Part shown: in pieces, positions 23,487-23,947 of the stretch
How positions within the stretch are numbered: position 1 is the first letter of the stretch
Layout: the number at the start of each line of letters is the position of its first letter
Assembly: GCA_046497275.1 (NCBI GenBank)
Contig: JAWOFX010000019.1
Span: 60,001 to 92,000, forward strand
From: Promethearchaeia archaeon
Lineage (GTDB): Archaea > Asgardarchaeota > Lokiarchaeia > Sigyniarchaeales > SOKP01
Direction: 5' to 3'
Length of the DNA stretch: 32,000 nt
Notes under the pieces: generated by a model
Database searches by the model: none
Seen by the model: the letters and a program-made list of their open reading frames with translations, nothing else
What the model was told of the DNA's origin: nothing
Position numbers and translations under genes: made by a program

Positions 23487-23678
23487 ATTAACCAGAATGA
23501 TTTAAATACTATTTTGAATATTCAATGATACTGAATGCGTCCAGTTATATAAAATGATAGAGTCCACTGATTAACTTAAATACATTTAATATCTTTTTAA
23601 TAAAATTAGATAAGACGATATTTTACCTTGAAAAATAAGAAAATTTAATTGAGAGTAGAAATTAATTTTTATAAAAAT

Positions 23679-23784
23679 GCGCGGATGGTTTAGCCTGGTA
23701 TAACGACACGCTCACACCGTGTAGGTTCGAGGGTTCAAAACGATTAAATCGTTTAGATACTGCGTGGAATTCCCTCTCCGCGCA
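23679..23784 (+). tRNA. trnV: tRNA-Val(CAC) with a 31-nt intron (23740-23770) at position 59/60 in the T-loop
   Basis: Acceptor GCGCGGA/TCCGCGC plus discriminator A; D-arm GTTT-AGCCTGGTA-TAAC; anticodon arm ACACG-CT CAC AC-CGTGT; T-stem GAGGG/CCCTC. Removing 23740-23770 restores T-loop TTCAAAT and gives a 75-nt tRNA. A BHB motif is present and CCA is not encoded. Confidence 0.92.
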
Positions 23785-23947
23785 TTCTTTCTTATACGCT
23801 CAAGATAAAAATCATTCTATAAAATATGTTCATTCTGATTTCATCCTTCAATATCTTTTTAACATATAAATTCGCAATAAAAATCATAAAAATTAAATGA
23901 AATGCTATATTTAAAGAAATAATTACCTTTTTCTGAGTTAATTCACC

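Follow-up and report, generated by a model that had tools for sequence, protein, structure and literature searches.

The window analyzed here is a stretch of 32,000 nucleotides, and positions 23679-23784 of its forward strand hold an intron-containing gene for tRNA-Val(CAC), as read from the sequence and from the call that ARAGORN makes once the intron has been excised in silico. Exon 1 (23679..23739, Sprinzl positions 1-59) carries the 5' strand of the acceptor stem, the D arm, the anticodon arm, the variable region, the 5' strand of the T-stem and T-loop positions 54-59. It is followed by an intron of 31 nt that bears a bulge-helix-bulge motif (BHB) and lies at site 59/60 (23740..23770), placed by a register test, by shuffling and by ARAGORN after excision. 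Exon 2 (23771..23784, Sprinzl 60-73) consists of T60, the T-stem 3' strand CCCTC, the acceptor 3' strand TCCGCGC and the discriminator A73; both exons rest on the sequence and on ARAGORN, all three parts lie on the forward strand, and CCA is absent from the encoded 3' end.

The acceptor stem GCGCGGA/TCCGCGC forms 7/7 pairs, the anticodon CAC (23713-23715) sits in the loop CTCACAC on a stem with 5/5 pairs, and the T-stem GAGGG/CCCTC (23729-23733/23772-23776) also has 5/5 pairs, enclosing 38 nt instead of 7. The D arm has the conserved GG; its stem is made of three pairs and a U13.U22 mismatch, which all orthologs share. As a side observation, this arm measures 17 nt here and 18 in four same-genus orthologs (15-19 over all 13). 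The spliced form, with cloverleaf stems of 7/4/5/5, 7-nt anticodon and T loops, CAC and A73, fits a class I elongator tRNA-Val. Every coordinate given in an earlier, sequence-only reading of this DNA proved correct when 23679-23784 was re-read base by base.

One feature does not fit. The variable region AGGTTC (23723-23728), which the earlier reading had also described, is 6 nt long and lies outside the 4-5 nt of a class I tRNA; it is 5 nt, mostly AGGTC, in 13/13 comparable orthologs. The extra T is real, being present in both RNA-library contigs that cover the gene (0 differences). It could impair function. A 6-nt region that is unique among 13 orthologs would suit a decaying or non-functional tRNA gene, in which the extra nucleotide and the T-loop insert are both lesions and GUG is read by another Val tRNA, for example UAC. 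We consider such decay very unlikely, and the four intact stems speak against it, as do further observations below.

Directly 3' of the discriminator, on the same strand, is a T-rich tract TTCTTTCTT (23785..23793), a candidate archaeal transcription stop. Upstream, an element AAAATTTAAT (23640..23649, forward strand) might tentatively be taken for a TATA-like candidate, lying about 25 nt before a possible start near 23672; it sits in an AT-rich spacer. A scan for sigma-70 promoters and terminators was set aside as inapplicable to archaea, and its lone "terminator" was the pairing of the T-arm and the acceptor stem.

The 5' half of the BHB motif (23729..23742, forward strand) comprises an outer helix strand at 23729-23733, a central strand at 23734-23737, a bulge at 23738-23740 and an inner strand at 23741-23742. 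The 3' half (23763..23776, forward strand) mirrors it, with the inner strand at 23763-23764, the central strand at 23765-23768, the bulge at 23769-23771 and the outer strand at 23772-23776. Both halves were delimited by the register test, folding and covariation. In the central helix 4/4 positions pair (T-A, T.G, C-G and A-T), so that TGGA in the 3' part of the intron pairs with T-loop nucleotides 54-57. The bulges are 3 nt each (AAA and ATT), and the inner pairs are 23741-23764 and 23742-23763.

The motif has the flanking helices of the strict hBHBh' form, the 5-bp T-stem outside and 2 bp inside, the latter being the minimum. The threshold of at least 2 bp is reportedly that of Marck and Grosjean in 2003. 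The predicted cuts lie after 23739 and after 23770, and removal of 23740-23770 regains the T-loop TTCAAAT. All of this reproduces, base for base, the motif in the sequence-only reading (5-bp outer helix, 4-bp central helix, two inner pairs and two 3-nt bulges), and the excision that it proposed likewise restores the loop and leads ARAGORN to call tRNA-Val(cac). Among the 8 excisions that give a 7-nt T-loop, only the one at 59/60 has the strict 4/4 motif with outer 5 and inner 2 pairs. Of 100,000 shuffled versions of the intron, 0.40% had the strict motif at 59/60, and 1.4% had it in any one of the 8 registers. That the motif stands in just the register needed to regain the loop is a further point against decay.

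Standard tools do not see this gene, as the earlier reading had suspected of default tRNA finders. ARAGORN, with or without its intron mode, makes no tRNA call on the intact locus and reports a 75-nt tRNA-Val(cac) after deletion of the 31 nt; a run of ARAGORN was among the checks that the reading had proposed. Similarly, Rfam has no match at the locus at its gathering score; at a lax E-value threshold there is a partial tRNA match of 17.3 bits to the 5' two-thirds only. The Rfam tRNA model scores the intronless orthologs L006, L007 and L008 at 63-65 bits and misses the intron-bearing L004 and L009, just as it misses the gene here. Two other outputs were rejected: a Plastid-rpl20 match of Rfam on the minus strand at the lax threshold, judged to be chance, and the artefacts of ARAGORN intron mode on the whole genome, such as Stop(tta), Phe(aaa) and an 888-nt "intron," produced in a run that missed tRNA-Val(CAC).

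The survey of orthologous tRNA-Val genes that had been suggested was carried out with the gene itself and an intron-free ortholog as queries, and the locus was recovered in most related genomes. The gene order Hef, tRNA, RpoK, orf142 is kept in nearly all loci (about 40 related genomes), and therefore the tRNA loci are orthologs. A T-loop insert of 29-36 nt is present in 15 of the 30 full-length Val(CAC) orthologs, and the T-loop is intact in the other 15. The inserts have diverged in sequence while the exons are conserved, exon 1 showing 87-100% identity to its counterparts in similarity searches. When the orthologs were aligned with gaps, and without use of the motif, to the 75-nt form that lacks the intron, recurrent inserts showed up in the T-loop and at about 28/29, 37/38 and 44/45. 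Among genomes of the same genus, a homologous intron of 30 nt occupies the same site in G002, the one in G005 measures 36 nt and is joined by another at 37/38, and none is present in G001 or G006. A syntenic locus at which half of the orthologs carry a like insert with compensatory changes is not what decay would predict.

A register could be assigned for 14 of the 15 insert loci, L033 and L048 having been read by eye. Nine fit 59/60 (the gene itself, L004, L005, L009, L011, L033, L035, L045 and L048) and five fit 58/59 (L010, L014, L040, L042 and L046), the latter with a central helix GTTC/GAAY. In an alignment of 8 sequences, the BHB positions pair in register in 92% of cells; with the partner strand shifted by 1-3 columns the share is 42-70%. 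Changes on both sides are seen in these sequences at four pairs: pair 57 (A-U, G-C or mismatch), T-stem pair 50:64 (A-U or G-C) and both inner pairs. The covariation score is 0.325 versus 0.174 for shuffles and was reached by 0/500 of them. As modest evidence from 8 related sequences, this suggests that compensatory changes maintain the motif in relatives.

Folding calculations are less tidy. The BHB conformer has a computed energy of -27.0 kcal/mol, compared with -29.9 under a cloverleaf-only constraint and -32.9 for the free fold, and the free minimum-energy fold of the locus contains neither cloverleaf nor BHB. The conformer lies above the minimum owing to a hairpin in the AT-rich intron sequence (23738-23754), whose formation is in competition with that of the 5' bulge; the hairpin ACGAT-TAA-ATCGT lies inside the intron at 23740-23752. 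Enzyme-bound motifs may differ from minimum-energy folds. That the computed fold favours an alternative inner pairing, and that the five orthologs named above use 58/59, could mean that a real intron is cut elsewhere or through a relaxed motif, for example at 58/59, and leaves a different T-loop. At this locus, however, 58/59 offers only 2/4 central pairs and the loop TTCAATT, and only 59/60 combines 4/4 pairs with flanking helices to give TTCAAAT, a T-loop also found in L005, L008 and L032 (most others have TTCGAAT). A cut in another register is, in our judgment, highly improbable here.

Some observations on the orthologous inserts stand apart from this argument. The T-loop introns of L009:1419-1465(-) and L010:1569-1614(+), from two genera, are identical over a 12-nt segment in their 3' part, tctatgcggaat, and are nonetheless predicted to use different registers, 59/60 in L009 and 58/59 in L010; L010 has about 2-3 extra nucleotides after the segment. 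The difference may reflect splice-site sliding. In the Val(CAC) orthologs L004-L048, inserts measure 30-33 nt at 28/29, 29-32 nt at 44/45 and mostly 29-31 nt in the T-loop, and the 37/38 introns mostly 18-20 nt. One could picture a single ancient Loki-type T-loop intron that was repeatedly lost and that small indels at its 3' end moved from one to the other of 59/60 and 58/59; it may also belong to a uniform class of non-canonical BHB introns of about 30 nt, inserts at 28/29, at 44/45 and in the T-loop measuring 29-33 nt, compared with 18-20 nt at 37/38. We offer this speculatively and think it rather unlikely. The neighbouring RpoK also varies: in L005 and L033 (genus g6) the alignment spans 115-121 residues with about 66% identity, and in other genera 101 residues with about 80%, which hints that rpoK of genus g6 has an insertion, possibly a mini-intron.

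The genome is a draft of 3.85 Mb in 188 contigs, with about 30% GC and 98.9% completeness. Near the tRNA gene are genes for a helicase-nuclease of the Hef type, RpoK/Rpb6, a GTPase of the Ras family that has a zinc ribbon, an LRR protein and PAN. Five actin-family genes of full length are present, the best scoring 444 bits over the whole Pfam Actin model, which none of the archaeal control genomes match; these genes support placing the genome among Asgard archaea of the Loki type. One actin-family gene, G000:C66:10869-11683 (-), matches the Pfam model as three pieces in succession, one with an in-frame TAG, and may be broken or interrupted by short inserts.

The earlier reading had pointed out that its case would be refuted if another intact tRNA-Val(CAC) existed and this locus were a disrupted copy such as an integration scar. 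A second Val(CAC) gene was sought in the genome in three ways, and none turned up: similarity searches gave one match only, a census based on BHB excision gave one locus only, and a similarity-independent structural scan, which pairs a tRNA 5' half bearing a CAC anticodon with a matching acceptor 3' strand and which 5'-half introns escape, found this locus only. Apparently, then, 23679-23784 is the only Val(CAC) gene of the genome, and a single copy at a conserved syntenic locus is neither a scar nor a disrupted copy. The lack of another Val(CAC) gene is evidence against decay as well; on the other side, the census missed some isoacceptors, and a Val(UAC) gene may exist undetected. The intron has no copies elsewhere in the genome by blastn-short, where only AT-rich matches of at most 16 nt appear, and therefore it does not belong to a mobile intron family.

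The enzymes that such a precursor would need are encoded. EndA is represented by two paralogues, ORFs on G000:C46 and C168, in both of which the N-terminal and the C-terminal EndA domain can be recognized, and two RtcB ligase genes are present. The first paralogue, EndA alpha (201 aa), has its best match in A. pernix 3p1z_B (3e-38, aligned end to end) and keeps the catalytic Tyr/His/Lys; in an ungapped alignment its Lys59 (ISKPR) lies opposite A. pernix K44 (VEKPR), the lysine of the Crenarchaea-specific loop that is a determinant of broad substrate range (PMC3241643; PMC5829648). The second (200 aa) aligns best with M. jannaschii EndA and carries Val where the catalytic His would be, a loss as would be expected of a structural subunit. 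[quoted passage not shown] Most Asgard genomes have two EndA paralogues (2026 preprint, 90 Asgard genomes), and the two found here match the published (alpha-beta)2 EndA with L1 loop of Asgard archaea (PMC5829648). The claim that a 59/60 site needs a broad-specificity endonuclease survives in part: an enzyme of that type appears to be present, but the strict motif of this intron may do without it according to published enzymology, which would require it for the relaxed 3/4 motifs of relatives, those of G002 and G022 among them.

Parts of the neighbourhood occur in twelve metatranscriptome runs from three salt-lake studies, and the contigs of 4 runs from 3 studies were examined. In two runs of one study there are contigs that span 23693-23872 and 23673-23802, show 0 differences and retain the intron. 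One of them ends at 23802 with adapter sequence and the other continues to 23872; the match of contig X3 starts at 23673, an end that probably reflects a join made in assembly. None of the four runs has contigs over the spacers 23538-23672 and 23878-23945; in run X5 the stretch is uncovered, and in run X7 only RpoK is represented. That the locus is covered and its flanks are not is again at odds with decay. The contigs fit transcription of an intron-containing precursor, although they could alternatively derive from contaminating DNA.

A joint that skips 23740-23770 was found in none of the contigs from the 4 runs, a result that would also suit a decaying gene; contigs cannot show absence, however, and mature tRNA is poorly captured in RNA libraries. 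Since only intron-retaining contigs were seen and contigs cannot show absence, splicing is something that we infer. These same contigs bear on whether the insert is an assembly artefact, as might be feared in a 188-contig draft, or a strain-specific insertion absent from the living population. Two contigs from separate runs with 0 differences, and the homologous intron of same-genus G002 at the same site, make this scarcely credible.

On the evidence of the gene itself, its motif with covariation, the presence or absence of the intron at a syntenic locus, the enzymes and the unspliced sequence in RNA libraries, we hold with high confidence that 23679-23784 is a single-copy tRNA-Val(CAC) gene whose precursor is spliced at 59/60 by EndA and joined by RtcB. 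The identity first proposed, a tRNA-Val(CAC) with a BHB intron at 59/60, is supported by the motif, the register test, the orthologs and synteny. In the precursor, a transcript of at least 106 nt, the acceptor, D and anticodon arms would fold normally, as would the T-stem, and T-loop positions 54-57 (UUCA) would pair with UGGA in the 3' part of the intron. This helix, flanked by the T-stem on its outer side and by a short helix of the intron on its inner side, would create the bulge-helix-bulge. An (alpha-beta)2 EndA would then cut each 3-nt bulge on the 3' side of its second nucleotide, 23739 and 23770, and RtcB would join the exons to give the T-loop UUCAAAU. Cleavage by EndA at 23739/23740 and 23770/23771 and ligation by RtcB are in all likelihood correct. 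End trimming, CCA addition and T-loop modification would follow ligation, the order of maturation steps being a presumed one.

The T-loop site had been called rare. This holds across archaea as a whole, where 59/60 is among the known non-canonical intron positions (PMC4090602) and T-loop introns have been mentioned (PMC3241643), but not in this lineage, where inserts occupy half of the orthologs and at least 4 other tRNA genes of the same genome have T-loop introns. Re-read by hand, these include Arg(CCT) with a 34-nt intron at 59/60 and a strict motif (G000:C85:8694-8819), Trp(CCA) with introns at 59/60 and in the D arm (C158:20656-20791(-)), Ala(GGC) with one at 58/59 (C25:39447-39550), and Asn(GTT), whose T-loop insert is 47 nt long and which also has a D-arm intron (C34:37188-37331). 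A tRNA-Sec with anticodon TCA, a long variable arm and a T-loop insert of about 29 nt is present as two identical copies at two contig ends, G000:C165:63-180 (-) and G000:C33:12-129 (+).

Rfam finds 26 tRNA genes in the genome, many longer than 100 nt, and the rough BHB-based census finds 33 tRNA loci, with the proviso that it is incomplete, that its Sprinzl numbering is approximate and that a second reading by hand was given to the T-loop cases. As the genome is 98.9% complete, these counts imply that standard finders overlook a good share of its tRNA genes. The value for annotation is plain when the only Val(CAC) gene escapes both ARAGORN and the Rfam tRNA model: without intron-aware tools, the tRNA complements of Loki-type Asgard archaea, and their codon-reading capacity, will be under-called. 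In addition, intron-bearing and intron-free alleles at a syntenic locus in some 30 genomes are a natural series for the gain, loss and register shift of BHB introns. The tRNA-Val(CAC) intron does not reveal a new mechanism.

Non-canonical BHB introns in tRNA genes of Crenarchaeota/Thermoproteales are reportedly the subject of Marck and Grosjean in 2003 and of Sugahara in 2008. The intron here resembles them (reviewed in PMC4090602) in its motif and cleavage rule and in the T-loop class of site, and in both cases exon sequence supplies half of the motif. The host here is an Asgard archaeon with about 30% GC, whereas theirs are hyperthermophilic crenarchaea, and transposed intron families are found in Thermoproteales, unlike the intron here, which is without sequence-similar copies in its genome.

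Published Asgard tRNA introns concentrate at the anticodon loop and the T-arm, where the inserts often have canonical motifs (2026 preprint, 90 Asgard genomes); tRNA-Val and this locus were looked for in that preprint and not found. The Asgard host, the (alpha-beta)2 EndA with L1 loop, the anticodon-loop and T-arm sites, the canonical T-arm motifs and the possible failure of standard finders are all alike. The published work centres on Jordiarchaeia/Freyr and Atabeyarchaeia, with over 2 introns in a gene; a single intron is present here, in a Loki-type family that the published Asgard intron papers do not single out. With the (alpha-beta)2 EndA of A. pernix (PDB 3p1z/3ajv; PMC3241643), the catalytic subunit can be aligned end to end and has in common Tyr/His/Lys and the loop lysine; the partner subunit here appears to be like full-length EndA of the M. 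jannaschii/M. kandleri type with only the His lost, whereas A. pernix has crenarchaeal beta chains. It is well supported that the T-loop intron of this tRNA-Val(CAC) is a further example of a published phenomenon, and an ordinary one for its lineage.
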